Positions 80-12,311 of a stretch of DNA of 25,667 bases are shown here, piece after piece; within the stretch, counting starts at the first letter, position 1, and each line of letters begins with the position of its first letter. The notes under the pieces are model-generated. The model was given only the letters and a program-made list of their open reading frames with translations. It did no database searches and was not told the origin of the DNA. The translations under genes and the position numbers were made by a program. This DNA is from Anaerolineae bacterium (GTDB lineage: Bacteria; Chloroflexota; Anaerolineae; JAAYZQ01), in NCBI GenBank assembly GCA_035461725.1, contig DATHUZ010000505.1, positions 1 through 25,667 of the forward strand, in the 5' to 3' direction.

Positions 80-616
80 CTAGGGATTGGCCGTTTCTAC
101 GGGCAGGCCGGCTGCCTGCCACGCAGCGAACCCGCCGAGCAGTGCCGAGGCACGATCAAAGCCGCGGTCGATCAACGTTTGTGCCACACGGGCACTTGCG
201 GCCTCCTGGCTTCAAGTTCAGTAGAGGACGAGATCGACGTCCTGTGGCAGCTCGTCGATCCACTCCTCGAGCTCTGTTTCGGGCGCAGAGATGGCGCCGG
301 CGATGTGCGACTGTTGATAGGCTGCGGCGCTGCGCACATCGACGAACAGTGCCTCTCCCGCCGCCACGCCTTGCTGCGCATCCTCGAGAGAGGTGCGCGG
401 CACGGCGGGGTAGGGGATCGAGGCGGTAGAGAGGGGCGCTGCTGTGGGCACCGACGCCAGGCGCGGCGCTGCGCCCCGGTTTTCGAACGAGACGATCACT
501 GCAGCGACCACGGCGACGAGGACGACGCCTACGAGAAGCGGGATCGCGAGTGAATTGGATTTCTGTTGTGGTTGCCGGCGGCGGGGTGCCGCGGCCTGAC
601 GCTTTTTCTTGCTCAC
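80..616 (-). CDS. Membrane-anchored rhodanese-like protein, putative selenoprotein with two in-frame UGA codons (U133-T-U135), 178 aa
   Basis: GTG start, basic N-terminus, one hydrophobic segment (LAIPLLVGVVLVAVVAAVIVSF), then rhodanese N-terminal motif FVDVRS..AY..SHIAGA. Past the ORF-track stop the frame reads LVLY-TGA-T-TGA-SQEAASARVAQTLIDRGFDRASALLGGFAAWQAAGLPVETANP-TAG(80-82), which supplies the active-site loop and the C-terminal rhodanese signature LxGGFxAWxxAGxPV. Confidence 0.85.
181..203 (-). promoter_or_regulatory. Candidate bacterial SECIS element(s) 3' of the UGA codons
   Basis: mRNA hairpin GUGCC-CGUGU-GGCAC (195-181) with G at loop position 2; the loop starts 21 nt after the second UGA and 27 nt after the first. 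An overlapping alternative is GGCC-GCAA-G(U)GCC (203-191). Short stems, found by eye. Confidence 0.5.
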
Positions 617-634
617 AATGCCTGTTACTTTCTA

Positions 635-670
635 GTGAACAAAGCGGCGTCCCGGGGTCCGGGACGCCGC
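635..670 (-). terminator. Rho-independent terminator after rpoD
   Basis: 12-bp perfect stem gcggcgtcccgg (644-655) / ccgggacgccgc (659-670), followed on the minus strand by TTTGTT. Confidence 0.75.
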
Positions 671-707: not shown

Positions 708-1931
<1,224 letters not shown>

Positions 1932-2452
1932 CCTGACCCAATCCCCCAATCTATCTCGGCTCCGCTGGCTGCCGGAGGGCCACGACCGGCGCTGCGGGCA
2001 TCCGCTTCACTGCGTGTTCCGACTCGTTTCTTTGAACCCGACGTCGGTGGCGTGAATGGCGTCTGCGCCTGGCGCGGGCCCCGGCTCTGGATCGCGCGCC
2101 AAAAGCAGGTGGTAGGGTGTGTTCGGCACGTACTGCTCAGGCCAAGGTGGTCGTTCCTGCCCGTTCGGCAACGTCGTTAGCGCATGCAACCAACACTCAG
2201 GTGTGTGTTCCTCCTCAAACACGCCGCGGCCGGGCAGAATCCGGCCGGAAAATGAGAACCGTACACGTGTGCTGGATAGCGGCTGCTGCAGGGGGGGACC
2301 CGGCAGTCGACGCCTTCCAATGTCCTCACAGAAATGGCCGCTGTCAGAGCGGCCAGACTGTGGTGCCTGTTGGTCACGTTCTTGACCGGGTTCATACACC
2401 TTTCTCGCGCGATAAATTCCCCAGGTGGCCGGGACGCGCCAAAGACAAGGCT

Positions 2453-2593: not shown

Positions 2594-5500
2594 ATGGCAA
2601 ACCAGGCGGCGCGCCTGCTGCCGGCGGCCGGCCTGTGCCTGCTGGTGCTGGTGGCCAGCACCGCGGTGACGACGGGCCGGGCGCTGCCGGGCACGGCACC
2701 GGGCGCCGTGCTGATTCACGAGCTGGAGTATGACCCGCAGGGCAGCGATGCCGCCTGCGAGTGGTTTGAGCTGTACAATGCCCTGACGACGCCCATCGAC
2801 CTTGCTGGCTGGCGTGTGCGCGACAATTATGCGGCCGACGTGCTGCCCGCCCTCACCCTGCCGCCGGGTGGCGCGGCGGTGGTGGCGGCCAGCACGAGTT
2901 TTTACGACAACTATCCGGCCTTTACGGGCACGCTGGTCGTGCTCGGCAGCCCGATCGGAAATGGGCTGAACAACGATGGAGACCGCCTCATCCTGGAGGA
3001 CGCGGCAGGGAGCGCGGTGGATGCCCTGTCGTATGGGGCCGACAGGACGATCCTCGACTGCGGCGGCTATCCGTGTGCCGGGGTGCCGGAGGGAAGCTCG
3101 CTGGAGCGCGACCCCGCCGGGCGGGACACCGACACCGCGGCCGATTTCGTCGCGCGCCAGGCGCCCACGCCGGGACGGATCGTGACACCCCCGCCCGCCA
3201 CCGCCGACCTGCGCGCGGGAAAGAGCGGGCCTGCCACCACCCCGCCGGGGGCGGTCATCACGTACACCATCACTTTGAGCAACGCGGGCCAGGTGGCGGC
3301 GGATGGGGTGTGGATCACCGACACGCTGCCGGCGGGTGCCGCGCTGATCTGGCACAGCGCGCCCTACCCGGTGGTTCAGCCAGGGCCCGGCACCCTCGCC
3401 TGGGCGGTGGGGACCGTACCGACGGGGTCGGGAGCTGTGCCGCCGGTGCAGTTTGAACTGGCCGTGCGCCTGCCCGCCGATGCCGCGGGCGAGGTGGCGA
3501 ACGTGCTGACGGCGACGACGACGACGGGGGAAGCGAACCCACTCGACAATGGGGCGACGGCCGTGACCCAGATCGAGGAGCTGCCGGGCGGTGCCCCTGT
3601 CCTGCTCGAGGCGATCTACTACGACGGGTATGCCGCGTACGATTACGACGAGGCGGTGCGGCTGGTGAACGTGGGCAGCGGCACGCTGGAGCTGGGTGGG
3701 TGGAGCCTGGGGGAACCGGGGGTGCAGGCCAGGGCCACCTTTGCGCCGGGCACGCAGCTTGAGGCGGGGGAACGGATCTGGTGCGCGCGCAAGGCGACGG
3801 CGTTCGAGGCGCAGTTTGGCTTCAAGCCCGACCTGGAAACGGACGACACGGATCCGGACGTGCCCGAGATGGAAGGAAGCTGGCCCGGCCTGGCGAACGA
3901 CGGGGGCGCGTGCGTGCTGCGCGACCCCGACGGGCAGGTGATCGACGCGGTGGTGTATGAAGGTGGGGACCCGGACACGTCCGGCTGGAGCGGTCCGGCG
4001 GTGGTGCCCTGGGCGTCGGGCGGCTACTTTGGCGCCGAAGGGCAGATCCTGTACCGGAAGCGCGACGAAGGGACGGGCCTGCCCTGGTCCGGCCCCGTCA
4101 CGACGACGGTGACGGCCTGGGCGCAGGACCCGGCCGACCCGGTCGGGGGGCGGCGGGTGCTCTATCCGGGCTGGGACCTGGACCGGTTTTTTGCGACGGC
4201 ACGCGTCACCGAGACGGCCGGCCTGGTCGTGGCGATTGCTCCCGATCACCTGCTCGAGGAGGTCGTGGCACGGCTCGGCACGGCGCAGAGCTCGATCCTG
4301 ATCGAAGCGTACACGCTCGAGAGCCGGGCGGTTGCTGACGTGCTGCTCAACAGGCTCGCGGCGGGGGTGCAGGTGAGCATACTGCTGGAGGGCAGCCCGG
4401 CGGGCGGGATAAAGAGCGCGCAGCGGTGGATCTGCAACCAGCTCCGGCTGGCAGGGGCGAACGTGTGGTTCATGTACGCGGGCGCCAGCCACGCGCGCTA
4501 TCGCTACCAGCACGCCAAGGTGATCGTGATCGACGACCGGCTGGCGCTGATTGGCACGGAGAATCTCAACCCATCGGCGATGCCTGCCGACGACAAGGCG
4601 AACGGCACGGCGGGCAGGCGCGGCGTGTACCTGATGACAGATGCGCCGGGCGTGGTGGAGCGGGTGCGCGCGGTGATCGAGGCGGACCTCGACCCCGATC
4701 ACCACGCGGACCTCGTCACCTGCGCCGACGTGCCGGAGCTGTGCAGCGGAACGGTGCCGCCGGCCGAGCCTGATTGGGTGACGTACACGGTCGCTTTTTC
4801 GTCGCCGCTGGTCGTGCGCGGCAAGATGGCCTTCGAGGTGGTGCAGTCGCCCGAGAACAGCCTACGCACGTCCGACGGGCTGCTTGGACTGCTGGCGCGG
4901 GCGGGGGCCGGCGACACGGTGCTCGTGGAGCAGTTTTACGAGCACGCCGCGTGGGGCGACGCCGGCGCCACGCCCGAGGATGATCCGAATCCCCGTCTCG
5001 AAGCGTACCTGGCGGCGGCCAGGCGCGGCGCCCGGGTGCGCATTTTGCTCAACCGGCACACGTTCGACGATTACGAGAATGAAAACGTGGCCACGGCCGC
5101 TTATCTGCATTCTGCAGCCAGCGGGCTCGATTTCCAGGTCCGGCTGGGCGACCCGACGGCACTGGGCCTGCACAACAAGATGGTGCTGGTGCACGCGGGC
5201 GGCAAGGGGATCGTGCACATCGGCAGCATCAACGGCAGTGAGGTGTCGTCGAAGGCAAACCGCGAGCTGGCGCTGCAGGTGCAGAGTGACGCGGCGTACG
5301 ACTATCTCGCCGCCCTGTTCGCCCACGATTGGGCTGCCTCGCCCCTGCCGGTCTATCTGCCCCTCGCCTACAGGGGGTGCGCCCTGCCCTCGCCTGCAGG
5401 ATACCCTCTCATCACCGAGCTGTTCTACGCGGTTTCGAAGGAGCAGGAGTGGGTCGAGGTCGGCAATCCCACATCCGAGGCGATCGATCTGTCGCGGTTC

Positions 5501-5932
5501 ACGATCGGCGACGCCCAGCGCCCCGACAGTTACGAGGGGATGTACGTGCTGCCTGCCGGCACGGTGCTCGCGCCGCAGCAGGTGCTGGTGATTGCCAGCT
5601 CGGCGGCCGCGTTCCGCGCGGCGTACGGGGTGCCCCCCGATTTCGAGTTCTACGAGACAGACGGCACGGTGCCCACACTCGCCCGCGCGCCGCTGTGGGG
5701 CGAGGGAGAGTGGGAGCTGCGCGGTGACGGCGACGAGGTGCTGCTGCTCGACACGGCAGGCCGGTGGGTGGACGTGGTGGTGTATGGCGACTCGCACCTG
5801 CCAGGGGTGGTGGCGCACCCGGGCGTGGCCTTTGGGCACTCGCTCGAGCGTTTTCCGGCGCGATTCGACACAAATGACTGTGCCGTCGATTTTCGTGACC
5901 AGCCCTTCCCGAGCCCGGGAAGGGTGCCGTAA
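2594..5932 (+). CDS. Secreted multidomain protein: lamin-tail domains + DUF11 + phospholipase D-family (two HKD-type motifs), 1112 aa
   Basis: Signal peptide; LTD motifs (LIHELEYDP...EWFELYN, LLEAIYYDG...EAVRLVN, LITELFY...EWVEVGN); DUF11-like ADL..GKSGP...ITYTITLSN.G...ITDTLP; PLD motifs HAKVIVID...GTENLN and HNKMVLVH...GSING. Confidence 0.88.
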   Translation: MANQAARLLPAAGLCLLVLVASTAVTTGRALPGTAPGAVLIHELEYDPQGSDAACEWFELYNALTTPIDLAGWRVRDNYAADVLPALTLPPGGAAVVAASTSFYDNYPAFTGTLVVLGSPIGNGLNNDGDRLILEDAAGSAVDALSYGADRTILDCGGYPCAGVPEGSSLERDPAGRDTDTAADFVARQAPTPGRIVTPPPATADLRAGKSGPATTPPGAVITYTITLSNAGQVAADGVWITDTLPAGAALIWHSAPYPVVQPGPGTLAWAVGTVPTGSGAVPPVQFELAVRLPADAAGEVANVLTATTTTGEANPLDNGATAVTQIEELPGGAPVLLEAIYYDGYAAYDYDEAVRLVNVGSGTLELGGWSLGEPGVQARATFAPGTQLEAGERIWCARKATAFEAQFGFKPDLETDDTDPDVPEMEGSWPGLANDGGACVLRDPDGQVIDAVVYEGGDPDTSGWSGPAVVPWASGGYFGAEGQILYRKRDEGTGLPWSGPVTTTVTAWAQDPADPVGGRRVLYPGWDLDRFFATARVTETAGLVVAIAPDHLLEEVVARLGTAQSSILIEAYTLESRAVADVLLNRLAAGVQVSILLEGSPAGGIKSAQRWICNQLRLAGANVWFMYAGASHARYRYQHAKVIVIDDRLALIGTENLNPSAMPADDKANGTAGRRGVYLMTDAPGVVERVRAVIEADLDPDHHADLVTCADVPELCSGTVPPAEPDWVTYTVAFSSPLVVRGKMAFEVVQSPENSLRTSDGLLGLLARAGAGDTVLVEQFYEHAAWGDAGATPEDDPNPRLEAYLAAARRGARVRILLNRHTFDDYENENVATAAYLHSAASGLDFQVRLGDPTALGLHNKMVLVHAGGKGIVHIGSINGSEVSSKANRELALQVQSDAAYDYLAALFAHDWAASPLPVYLPLAYRGCALPSPAGYPLITELFYAVSKEQEWVEVGNPTSEAIDLSRFTIGDAQRPDSYEGMYVLPAGTVLAPQQVLVIASSAAAFRAAYGVPPDFEFYETDGTVPTLARAPLWGEGEWELRGDGDEVLLLDTAGRWVDVVVYGDSHLPGVVAHPGVAFGHSLERFPARFDTNDCAVDFRDQPFPSPGRVP

Positions 5933-8977: not shown

Positions 8978-11434
8978 TCAGGCCAGGATCTGGCCGAGCG
9001 GCCGGCGCAGCTCGACAGGCACCACTACCCACAGCTCCCCATCGACCGTGGCCTCTACGAGCAGCCCATAGAGGCGCAGGCGGCCCATCACCGACTCGGG
9101 CTTGTGCCACTGCCAGTAGCGGGATTCGTCGAGGTCGTTGTCGTACAGCTCGTCGAACGTCTGCCACGGCATGTAACCGCCGCGGGCCAGCACGGCGCGC
9201 AGCGCCGTACGCTCCTCGGCGCTCCAGTCGGCAGAGAGCGCCGCCAGCCTGCCCACGTCGGTGAGCCCCGCGATGATGGCGTCGACCAGCTCTGCCTTGC
9301 GCAGGGTCGACCACCCGCCTTCGGGGAGCACGACGTCGGCCATGCCCACCAATCCCTCCTTGGTATAGAGAGGCAGGGCTTGCGCCAGGGTGGGCTCGAG
9401 GATGGTGAGGGCGGCTTGCAGTTTTTGGCGCTTGGCCAGGTCTCGCCTGTACTGCGCCTCAACCCAGTCATCAACGACGTCGCGCTCCCCCGTACGGCGC
9501 AGCCAGTCCAGCCAGTCACGCGCCTCTTCGTATTCAGGCCACATCTCGAGCGCGTGTTCGAGCATCTCTTCGGCCCCCCTGTATTCTTCCTGCGCGATCA
9601 GGATGCGGGCCTGCGCGAAGGAGTAGAGGGCCATGTCGCGCGTGCCAAAATGGGTGGCTTCCGACAGGGGCGCGAGCATCGCGATCGCGGCTTCGATGTC
9701 CCCCTCGTCGAGCAGGTAACGGTTCAGGTTGAGGCGCGGAACGACGTAGAGCGGATCGAGCTCGATCGCCTTGCTGTAGAGCTCTTTGGCACGGTCATGT
9801 TCCTCGCGGCGCGAATAGACGGTGGCGAGGTTGTTGTGGATGTCGGGTGCGTTGGGCTCGAGCTCGATCGCACGCCGGAGCCTCTTTTCGGCGAGGGCCA
9901 GATCGCCGGCCTGGAGCGCCTGCATGCCCTGTGCGTGGAGGGCCATCACCTGGGGCGAGTAGGGAGGGCGCGCGGTCTCTGATATCTCGATCTGGCGCAT
10001 CTCGACCTCCTGCCATTCTCCCCCATGCCACATGCGCAGCGTCTCGCCGGGCTCGATCTGGCCTGCTTGGGACAGCATGGCCAGCGCGTTCATACGGTCC
10101 TCGTCACCACCCGACTGGCTGAACGCGAAGCGACGGATGGCGGCATAGGCGGCCGGGGTGCCGATACGCGCCAGCAGGCTGACGCCCGCGCCTGGCTGCA
10201 TCTCTTCCCAGACGATCTTTTCGGCGACGAGCACGAGCTGTGGAAAGCGCTCGACGAAACGCGCCACCTCGCGCTCGAACCGTTGGGGCGCCAGCCGGTC
10301 CTCGCGCTGGATCAACTCGACGAACTCCTGGAGACGTTGTTTGGAGATCAGGTGGTCGATGGGAAAGTATGGAAAGCGGTCGGACCAACCGAGGCCGCGC
10401 TGCCCGTCACGCACGGCCCGCACCAGGGGCTCGACGCCCGGCGACTCGGCCTGGAGTGCTTCCAGGTGCCGGCGTGCATCTTTCATGCCGAGATTGGCCA
10501 TGGCAACGGCGAGAAAGAACCTGGCCTGCGCGCCCAAGGCCTTAACGTCGGGGCGAGCCGCATCGACGTCGTCGAGCCCGGCGAGCATGTCGTACACGCG
10601 CTCGTCGTCGTCCATGGCCGCGAACGCCTCGGCGGCTTTCAGGCGCTCGTCGGGGCCGTCGGGCGTGAGCTCACGCAGCCTCGACCACGCTTCGGCGGCC
10701 TCCTCTCGCCGTGCCGACCAGGCCAGGAAGCGGACGGCGTTGCTGAGGGCCTGCAGGTTGTCAGGATCACGGGCGAGAACGTTGAGCGTCTCCTCGATAG
10801 CCCGCTGGGGCTCGCCGTTGAAAAAGAGGGCGAGGGCCAGGTTGTTGCGCGGCGGCGCCCAGTCGTCGAGGACGCGGATCGCCTGCCGGTTGGCCCGGAT
10901 CGCGGCGGGATAGTCGGCCTGCTGGAGGGCGCGGTTTGCGGTGTTGAGGTGGCGCACAGCGGTCTCGACCTGGCGCAGTGGCACGCCATGCTGCTCGGCG
11001 ACCAGCGTCATGTCGTGCTCCAGCAAAGAGATCGTTTCGCGCACCATCCCGGCAAAGGCACTATTGGGAGCCTGTCGCTGCAGCTCGCGGAAGGCCTGCA
11101 GGGCATAGGCGTGCAGGCCCAGGTCGTAAAAGATCGACGCCAGGGCGAGCGTGTAGACCTCGTCGCGGCCGAGCTGCGCCGCGCGCTCGTAGTGTGGCAA
11201 TGCATCCCACGGCTCGCCTGCCTGCAATTTAGCGAGGCCGAGGGCGTATTGCAGCTCGGGCACCCGCCCGTGCCTGGCGACGAGCGGCTGCAGGAGGGCG
11301 ATCGCCTGGTGTGGCTTGCCGGCATCCAGTAAGTGCTGTGCCTGATCGAGTGCCTCTTCCAGGGCGGCGGCAGGGCCGCGTGGTGCGGTGCGTGCCGTGC
11401 GCGGTGGTGTGCGTTTCTTCTTGCGCTTGCTCAT
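8978..11434 (-). CDS. Tetratricopeptide-repeat protein with an uncharacterised C-terminal domain, 818 aa
   Basis: Many TPR-like helices (e.g. APPRNNLALALFFNGEPQRAIEETLNVLARDPDN, DIHNNLATVYSRREEHDRAKELYSKAIELDP); ATG 7 nt after the nfo stop. Confidence 0.88.
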   Translation of the reverse strand: MSKRKKKRTPPRTARTAPRGPAAALEEALDQAQHLLDAGKPHQAIALLQPLVARHGRVPELQYALGLAKLQAGEPWDALPHYERAAQLGRDEVYTLALASIFYDLGLHAYALQAFRELQRQAPNSAFAGMVRETISLLEHDMTLVAEQHGVPLRQVETAVRHLNTANRALQQADYPAAIRANRQAIRVLDDWAPPRNNLALALFFNGEPQRAIEETLNVLARDPDNLQALSNAVRFLAWSARREEAAEAWSRLRELTPDGPDERLKAAEAFAAMDDDERVYDMLAGLDDVDAARPDVKALGAQARFFLAVAMANLGMKDARRHLEALQAESPGVEPLVRAVRDGQRGLGWSDRFPYFPIDHLISKQRLQEFVELIQREDRLAPQRFEREVARFVERFPQLVLVAEKIVWEEMQPGAGVSLLARIGTPAAYAAIRRFAFSQSGGDEDRMNALAMLSQAGQIEPGETLRMWHGGEWQEVEMRQIEISETARPPYSPQVMALHAQGMQALQAGDLALAEKRLRRAIELEPNAPDIHNNLATVYSRREEHDRAKELYSKAIELDPLYVVPRLNLNRYLLDEGDIEAAIAMLAPLSEATHFGTRDMALYSFAQARILIAQEEYRGAEEMLEHALEMWPEYEEARDWLDWLRRTGERDVVDDWVEAQYRRDLAKRQKLQAALTILEPTLAQALPLYTKEGLVGMADVVLPEGGWSTLRKAELVDAIIAGLTDVGRLAALSADWSAEERTALRAVLARGGYMPWQTFDELYDNDLDESRYWQWHKPESVMGRLRLYGLLVEATVDGELWVVVPVELRRPLGQILA

Positions 11435-11441
11435 GATCTCT

Positions 11442-12311
11442 TTACCCAGCGTCCTCGACGAGGGAACGGAGGATGCGCAGGTTCTCTCTATCTTCTTCCA
11501 GGTCAGGCCCCTTGTCGGTTTCGAGAGTCATGGGGATGCCGCGAAAGCGCGGGTCGTTGAGGAGACAGCGGAACGGCTCGAGGCCGAGCTGGCCGTGGCC
11601 GATGTGGTCGTGGCGGTCGACGCGGCTGCCCAGCTCACGCTTGGAGTCGTTGAGGTGGATGGCCTTTAGCCGCTCCAGCCCGAGCACGGCGTCGAACCGG
11701 CTCCAGGTGGCCTCGTAGCCCTCGCGGGTGCGGAGCTCGTAGCCGGCGGCAAAGGCGTGGCACGTGTCGAAGCAGATGCCGAGGCGCTCGGGCTCGCGCA
11801 CGCAGTCGATCATCCCACGGAGCTGCTCGAAGGTATACCCCAGATGATCGCCCTGGCCGGCGGTATTCTCCAGCCACACCTGCGCCCTGTGTCCGGGCAG
11901 CCGTCGGTGGACCTCCTCCAGTCCCTGGCTGATGCGGGCGAGCCCAACCGCCTCGCCGGCGCCCTTGTGCGAGCCGGGGTGGATCACCAGGCCGGGCAGA
12001 TCGAGCTGCTCACAGCGCTCCAAGTCGTCTACCAGGGCGTCGATCGATTTATGCCACAGCTCGTCGTCGGTGGTGCCCAGGTTGAGCAGGTAGATAGCGT
12101 GCGCAAAGACGGGGGCGATGCCAGTCTCACCGAGCATGGCACGAAAGGCGGCGATCGCCTCGTCGTCGAAGGGGGGCGACTTCCAGCGGTTGGGGTTCTT
12201 GACGAAAATCTGGATGCAGTCGCACCCCACGTCGCGCCCGCGCTCGAGCGACTTGTCGAGGCGGCCAGAGGTGGATTGATGGGATCCAAGGAGTAACCTG
12301 GGTGTGGTCAT
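11442..12311 (-). CDS. nfo: Endonuclease IV (AP endonuclease)
   Basis: LGSHQS..G, QIFVKNP, HAIYLLNL, HPGSH, LENTAGQG, CFDTCHAFAAGY, HLNDSK, DRHDHIG, LET motifs; SD GGAAGGAG. Confidence 0.95.
   Translation of the reverse strand: MTTPRLLLGSHQSTSGRLDKSLERGRDVGCDCIQIFVKNPNRWKSPPFDDEAIAAFRAMLGETGIAPVFAHAIYLLNLGTTDDELWHKSIDALVDDLERCEQLDLPGLVIHPGSHKGAGEAVGLARISQGLEEVHRRLPGHRAQVWLENTAGQGDHLGYTFEQLRGMIDCVREPERLGICFDTCHAFAAGYELRTREGYEATWSRFDAVLGLERLKAIHLNDSKRELGSRVDRHDHIGHGQLGLEPFRCLLNDPRFRGIPMTLETDKGPDLEEDRENLRILRSLVEDAG

Follow-up and report, generated by a model that had tools for sequence, protein, structure and literature searches.

We found that a gene listed with 132 residues in the genome of an Anaerolineae bacterium is very probably an intact, mis-called gene for a 178-residue membrane-anchored rhodanese selenoprotein. 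Two UGA codons lie one codon apart in its frame and, judging from the sequence and its relatives, both are almost certainly read through as selenocysteine (Sec). A hairpin just downstream, conserved and covarying across relatives, is a candidate bacterial SECIS element that may serve both codons. The gene lies in the window (the whole 25,667-nucleotide stretch analysed), which is contig C505 of a MAG consisting of 854 contigs and estimated at 71% completeness.

Reading frame and protein architecture

A standard list of open reading frames gives this gene as 132 aa (218..616). As the first-pass annotation had described, accurately in both coordinates and sequence, this product ends in the middle of a domain and its frame continues through two TGAs into a complete rhodanese. 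After ...DLVLY come TGA (220-218), ACT (217-215), TGA (214-212), and then 43 sense codons ending in ...GLPVETANP and a TAG. The 178-aa read-through product matched the Pfam Rhodanese family (PF00581) with 60.4 bits, against a gathering score of 22.2, over residues 77-169, and both TGAs therefore lie within the match. The expectation that gene callers shorten the protein was borne out by the best database matches, which were fragments of 97-142 aa ending in ..LVLY or ..LYCT. One source calls one such fragment, the shortened 132-aa product of a 92%-identical orthologue (P0002), "flagellar basal body-associated protein FliL"; the transmembrane (TM) and linker region very probably misled that annotation. 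The features of the locus are as follows.

80..616 (-): whole coding sequence when read through, 178 codons and a TAG; predicted membrane-anchored rhodanese selenoprotein, with the same full-length frame in orthologues
614..616 (-): GTG start codon; N-terminus V/M-S-K-K-K, orthologue starts coincide and several are ATG (MSKSK.., MSKKK..)
545..616 (-): residues 1-24, a basic N-terminal tail containing nine Lys/Arg; cytoplasmic in the predicted topology
482..544 (-): single TM helix, residues 25-45; a hydrophobic stretch that orthologues conserve, helical in the AlphaFold2 (AF2) model
410..481 (-): low-complexity Pro/Ala/Thr linker, residues 46-69; pLDDT 54-72, variable in length and sequence between orthologues
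92..409 (-): rhodanese homology domain, residues 70-175; PF00581 match of 60.4 bits, pLDDT >94, Foldseek matches
218..220 (-): UGA1, residue 133; accessory Cys/Sec position where strand 128-132 ends
212..214 (-): UGA2, residue 135; canonical position of the catalytic Cys in rhodaneses
181..195 (-): candidate bacterial SECIS hairpin; stem GUGCC (195-191), loop CGUGU (190-186), stem GGCAC (185-181)
80..82 (-): true stop codon TAG, read from the sequence

An AF2 model built from an alignment of 32 family members had a mean pLDDT of 82. Within its rhodanese domain (pLDDT >94), the strand formed by residues 128-132 runs into U-T-U, which is followed by a helix at residues 136-150. The top Foldseek matches were the single-domain rhodaneses BH2092, Alr3790, lp_1913, GlpE, and YgaP, with E-values of ~1e-8 against the top solved chains. 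Alignment with phmmer to domain 2 of 1yt8 and to 6mxv placed the canonical catalytic Cys at residue 135. The initial assignment of the catalytic Cys position to the first UGA was thus mistaken: the canonical site is the second UGA, and residue 133 is an extra position two residues earlier. The catalytic loop reads U-[SGA]-Q-E-x-x-S (U-S-Q-E-x-x-S in the window protein), with an invariant Glu138 and no Arg. This acidic/amide loop, lacking the usual basic residues, is unlike those of thiosulfate sulfurtransferases, and the absence of Arg therefore argues against simple thiosulfate anion binding.

The charge around the TM helix is biased, with nine Lys/Arg before it and a net charge of ~+1 just after. 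By the positive-inside rule, the basic flank of such a helix stays cytoplasmic. Paralogues with UTU or CAU motifs (L059, P0033) carry lipoprotein-like signals and long Pro/Thr linkers. From the charge bias, the AF2 helix, and these paralogue signals, we infer that an N-in/C-out topology with the rhodanese domain facing outward is likely. We also observed DedA-family membrane proteins fused to a C-terminal CxC-type rhodanese (..LYCTCPDE..; P0017, P0024, and P0028), whose rhodanese domain is probably cytoplasmic given a basic stretch after the last TM segment. Outward location is therefore not a property of the whole family.

Codon states and selection across orthologues

Every orthologue fetched, from 11 metagenome contigs and, besides the window's own genome, the genomes of 19 relatives, showed the same layout, and 30 distinct orthologues at 46-93% identity were compared. 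When TGA was read as U, the metagenome contigs all ran on into the same conserved tail, with UTU in six and CTU in five. An orthologue was present in 21 of the 22 genomes searched from the same bacterial family, each with one or two internal TGAs and none with zero. In 19 of these genomes, the top-scoring match was C/U-T-U in every case, with no discards. Residue 135 was encoded by TGA in 30 of 30 orthologues. Residue 133 was TGA in 13, TGC in 11, and TGT in six, and never TGG or any other codon, so that the motif LYCTU occurs in 17 orthologues while the window protein has LYUTU. Cys stands at both positions in the homologues P0014, P0016, P0018, L086, L122, and L139. The CxC/CxU/UxU series predicted from the window alone, with Cys or TGA at both positions, was found among homologues.

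To place these states in a phylogeny, we used a maximum-likelihood tree of 102 domains, in which all 18 UxU genes fell within Anaerolineae. The Cys/Sec label at residue 133 changed seven times on this unrooted tree, and at least four of the changes were forced by well-supported branches. Outgroup phyla were CxU throughout, which favours repeated Cys-to-Sec gains as the direction of change.

The genome also encodes the machinery for Sec insertion, as the first-pass reading would require. We identified a tRNA-Sec (67.8 bits with Rfam; anticodon tca, i.e., UCA, by ARAGORN), selA (582 bits) and selB (312 bits), both without internal stops, and selD (362 bits), which has one in-frame TGA at the position equivalent to catalytic Cys17 (..TTAAG-U-ASK..). 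This selD (G000:C203, L018, TGA at nt ~1034) is itself a selenoprotein gene, and two different candidate hairpins follow its UGA.

Purifying selection acts on the tail as it does on the segment before the UGAs. By the Nei-Gojobori method, median dN/dS was 0.24 for codons 136-178 with the hairpin codons removed and 0.26 for codons 66-132, and UTU-UTU pairs gave 0.06-0.43 after the UGAs. The tail is thus constrained in the way the suggested dN/dS comparison was meant to reveal. These values bear on the possibility that two nonsense mutations have turned a rhodanese gene into a pseudogene. Standard translation does end after 132 residues, and gene callers do shorten the gene. However, dozens of orthologues that have diverged to 46-93% identity share these TGAs; the tail is intact and purifying selection acts on it, as does selection at the RNA level on the hairpin described below. 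The orthologue codon counts and the tail dN/dS refute the pseudogene reading, to which we give almost no credence. The initial judgement that two chance nonsense mutations would be a poor account of this gene held up for the same reasons, with the TGAs kept across divergent orthologues and the tail under selection. In a metatranscriptome run, we found only a partial, diverged piece matching positions 405-611.

We likewise regard it as vanishingly unlikely that the TGAs are assembly or sequencing errors, or that this organism reads TGA as a sense codon under code 4 or 25. The genome is a fragmented MAG, which leaves some room for error. However, contigs from two independent sequencing studies (runs X2 and X3) span 54-326 and 133-283 and show no difference at 212-220, so both TGAs recur in independent metagenome runs and assemblies; the concern about assembly error raised in the first-pass annotation is thereby answered. 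Reassignment is contradicted by TGA serving as an ordinary stop elsewhere in the window, where it closes long genes such as an 850-codon frame at 8978-11527 (-), and in L038, where it also terminates the orthologue. Moreover, selA and selB lack internal stops, and the genome carries dedicated Sec machinery. The independent contigs and the TGA stops in the window refute the error and reassigned-code readings, respectively.

Directly upstream of the rhodanese gene lies an rpoD-like sigma-70 gene (regions 1.1-4; 708-1949 (-)), and this adjacency is kept in every longer orthologous contig (L027, L030, L031-33). The downstream neighbour encodes a 566-aa protein with only weak glycosidase-like matches, and neither neighbour offered a functional clue. 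Between the rpoD stop and the rhodanese start, at ~638-670 (-), is a perfect 12-bp GC-rich inverted repeat (GCGGCGTCCCGG / CCGGGACGCCGC) with a 3-nt loop, followed by TTTGTT. From its sequence, this repeat looks like an intrinsic terminator, and the rhodanese gene may therefore have its own promoter; a consensus terminator scan did not list the repeat. Elsewhere in the window, at 2594-5932 (+), a 1112-aa open reading frame begins with a signal-like segment and contains two HxK(x)4D-like motifs (..YQHAKVIVID.. and ..GLHNKMVLVH..). Its translation is reminiscent of a phospholipase-D-family nuclease or phosphodiesterase.

The candidate SECIS hairpin and decoding of the first UGA

The candidate hairpin, whose stem begins 16 nt downstream of UGA2 and 22 nt downstream of UGA1, is encoded by codons 141-145 (S-A-R-V-A), which read AGT GCC CGT GTG GCA across the 30 orthologues, and the sole change, GCA>GCG, turns a U-A pair into a U-G pair and so keeps the pairing. 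Other invariant residues in the same orthologues used four codons (Leu131, Gly152, and Gly162) or five (Leu148 and Leu159). Because the hairpin codons are fixed while other invariant residues vary in codon, the constraint acts on the RNA.

We assessed covariation in a set of 102 distinct relatives with TGA, which included orthologues and paralogues as well as homologues in other phyla. The five pairs were formed in 98.8% of cells, compared to 24-62% when the 3' arm was slid by one to three columns. Three of the five pairs showed compensatory changes: G-C<->C-G 24 times, C-G<->U-A 28 times, and, in the innermost pair, C-G<->U-A once. No shuffle reached the observed covariation score. Loop position 2 was G in 102 of 102 relatives and position 3 was U in at least 90%. 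In the E. coli SECIS, the corresponding loop bases are G23 and U24 (PMC8659212), which are matched by the loop G and following U of the window hairpin. In three CxC genes from fetched genome loci, only two or three of the five pairs were formed. The SECIS that the first-pass annotation expected 3' of the UGAs thus has a conserved, covarying candidate in the right position that lacks a counterpart in CxC forms. We consider this covariation-backed candidate SECIS for CxU/UxU rhodaneses to be new here.

Thermodynamics alone provided no evidence for the hairpin because its folding energies were ordinary. Its free energy of −7.6 kcal/mol (z = −0.9) is unremarkable for GC-rich sequence, and single-sequence folding likewise gave z-scores of −0.06 to −1.3. 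Searches with Rfam, over the whole window at the gathering threshold and over 100-260 at E <= 10, found no SECIS and no other relevant family. Like the E. coli fdhF-type SECIS, the candidate is a hairpin within the coding sequence just after a UGA, with the apical-loop G-U conserved. It differs in that its 5-bp stem lacks the bulged U, in that it stands at 16 and 22 nt rather than 11 nt, and in that it apparently serves two UGAs. RNAalifold also drew UGA2 into a small stem, CYUG(A)...CARG, but its pairs track the Thr/Sec/Gln/Glu codons and include several mismatches, and we make no claim for it. When the whole genome was scanned for TGA followed by 16 nt and a GC-rich 5-bp hairpin with a GU loop, 24 matches were returned, among which only two rhodanese genes (on C505 and C149) had real-looking coding frames. 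This geometry may therefore not be general for the selenoproteins of the organism.

A comparison of natural variants indicates how the first UGA may be served. The 15-nt spacer and the hairpin are identical between the CTU gene L027 and the UTU genes L037 and L041, and only TGY<->TGA separates the two states. By this sequence comparison, UGA1 would require no extra RNA element. In the mechanism we propose, SelB-Sec-tRNA(Sec) would decode both UGAs, signalled by one hairpin within the coding sequence with G-U in its loop. This would amount to two successive SelB-dependent Sec insertions, at UGAs two codons apart, from a single 15-nt hairpin. A Cys-to-Sec switch at the first site would then need one base change, which appears to have been made or reversed at least four times in Anaerolineae.

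The most serious alternative is that only UGA2 is a genuine Sec codon, while UGA1 is leaky, read by a near-cognate Cys or Trp tRNA, or mostly terminating. In that case, UxU genes would make only small amounts of full-length protein, or their product would be C/W-x-U. The greater distance of the hairpin from UGA1 than from UGA2 fits this explanation, particularly as SECIS function in E. coli is described as spacing-dependent, at 11 nt (PMC8659212). So does the tolerance of Cys at residue 133 in 17 of 30 orthologues. However, residue 133 is always TGA, TGC, or TGT, without a single TGG or other codon. The UxU state has also arisen or reverted at least four times and persists in whole clades with downstream dN/dS of 0.06-0.25, whereas a mostly terminating codon ahead of an essential catalytic residue should be purged. 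In addition, a UxU rhodanese was earlier catalogued as a double selenoprotein (PMC1976440). We therefore view restriction of Sec to UGA2 as improbable. Because residue 133 is only ever Cys or TGA, and because UxU clades are under selection downstream, we judge Sec at this position likely and have good confidence, from sequence comparison, that its TGA is decoded as such. The proposal that both Cys positions are recoded as Sec accordingly fared well, with the machinery, the Cys/TGA series, selection on the tail, and the covarying hairpin all in its favour.

Known relatives, proposed function, and significance

Rhodanese selenoproteins with a CxU motif have been catalogued before, as "COG0607 form 2, CxU" (PMC9312934) and "form 3, NF041203, CxU" (PMC13188914). 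The best NCBIfam match of the window protein was NF041203 ("rhodanese_LYCAU"), at 88.5 bits, and did not reach the curated cut-off of 115. The CTU orthologue L031 (88.3), the organism's own CAU paralogue (77.5), and an acidobacterial homologue (88.1) also scored below this value, and by the curators' rule these proteins therefore form a sister clade rather than members of the family. They resemble NF041203 in having a single rhodanese domain whose catalytic Sec follows a Cys by two residues (..LYC-x-U..), with a Glu next in the loop and then the S-A-R/G-x-A segment that encodes the hairpin. The window protein differs in its N-terminal anchor and linker and in U for C at the first position.

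A UxU form of rhodanese-related sulfurtransferase selenoprotein was reported in 2007 from the metagenome of Olavius algarvensis symbionts (PMC1976440). There, a second Sec was described as having evolved two residues from the first, in a single observation, and the selenoproteins of that metagenome were assigned to deltaproteobacterial symbionts or left unassigned (PMC1976440). Compared by description only, that protein has the same U-x-U rhodanese pattern as ours; here, the pattern occurs in Anaerolineae, in at least four lineages, and with SECIS covariation. The earlier view that a Sec pair one residue apart is rare therefore stands, whereas its novelty does not, given the 2007 report (PMC1976440) and the catalogued CxU family. 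This is not a new class of selenoprotein but a mis-called gene rescued within a known family. What is new here is the membrane-anchored clade, near-universal in one Anaerolineae family and adjacent to rpoD, with repeated Cys/Sec switching at residue 133. Also new is the breadth of the CxU family in Acidobacteriota, with one homologue each in a MAG of Nitrospirota and one of Geobacteraceae.

More distant comparisons set the protein apart. The TsoB rhodanese/DsbD fusion-like double selenoprotein (NF045694, UxxxxU) is also a membrane-associated rhodanese with two Sec residues, but the match was weak (28 bits), and TsoB has a different Sec spacing and is a much larger fusion protein of a different family. 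E. coli GlpE, PspE, and YgaP share the fold and carry their catalytic residue in the same strand-to-helix loop, and YgaP is also membrane-anchored. However, these enzymes use Cys in a loop of the C-x4-[RS]-S type rather than U-S-Q-E-x-x-S. The rhodanese domain of YgaP is cytoplasmic and its TM helices are C-terminal. No relevant report of a characterised CxC-motif rhodanese emerged from a literature search.

Further rhodanese selenoprotein genes occur in the same genome and among its relatives. A second CxU-type gene (G000:C149:4415-4828, L056; ..FYCAU..) encodes a long Pro/Thr-rich N-terminal linker, and its hairpin, GCGCC-CGUGC-GGCGC, is a compensated version of that in the window. A third (G000:C288:636-893, L057) has one Sec at the catalytic position (..VVTYUNMHNRGS..) and a genuine TGA stop; its predicted product appears to be cytoplasmic, with no TM segment. 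Tandem pairs of these rhodanese genes were found in acidobacterial and Anaerolineae contigs (L086, L091, L097, L107, L124, and L131), and L086 holds an all-Cys CSC copy and a Sec-containing CSU copy within one 3.3-kb locus. The CTU gene of L129, which was binned as Propionibacteriaceae, is nearly identical to that of L117 in an Anaerolineae MAG, and the two are sister tips with branches of 0.14 and 0.003. This points to a binning error and not to transfer.

As we picture it, the window gene would encode a type-II membrane protein in which a basic cytoplasmic tail leads into one TM helix, followed by a Pro/Ala-rich linker and one rhodanese domain. Sec135 in the catalytic loop and Sec133 at the end of the β-strand would make up a vicinal U-x-U pair. 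Because side chains at positions i and i+2 at the end of a strand point the same way, the two selenols could pair up as a diselenide or bind sulfur, selenium, or a soft metal between them. The pair might act as a carrier of sulfane sulfur or selenium (as a perselenide or persulfide) or as a redox-active diselenide or selenenylsulfide centre. An outward-facing centre for chalcogen transfer or redox chemistry is the function class that we put first, although tentatively. Taken as a whole, we lean slightly towards a single hairpin that directs both Sec insertions, combined with a vicinal diselenol on the outer face that would handle sulfur, selenium, or soft metals, or serve in the envelope as a very oxidising or very reducing diselenide couple.

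Public protein sets store this gene and dozens of its relatives as fragments of 97-142 residues, and reading through the UGAs recovers a conserved selenoprotein of the envelope, near-universal in one Anaerolineae family. Pairs of CTU and UTU genes with an identical spacer and hairpin constitute a natural experiment on how much UGA-to-SECIS spacing SelB tolerates, and the same pairs bear on processive double Sec insertion. With these genes, Chloroflexota and Acidobacteriota bacteria of soil and sediment join the users of CxU/UxU rhodanese selenoproteins, and the family suggests selenium-dependent chemistry outside the cytoplasm.
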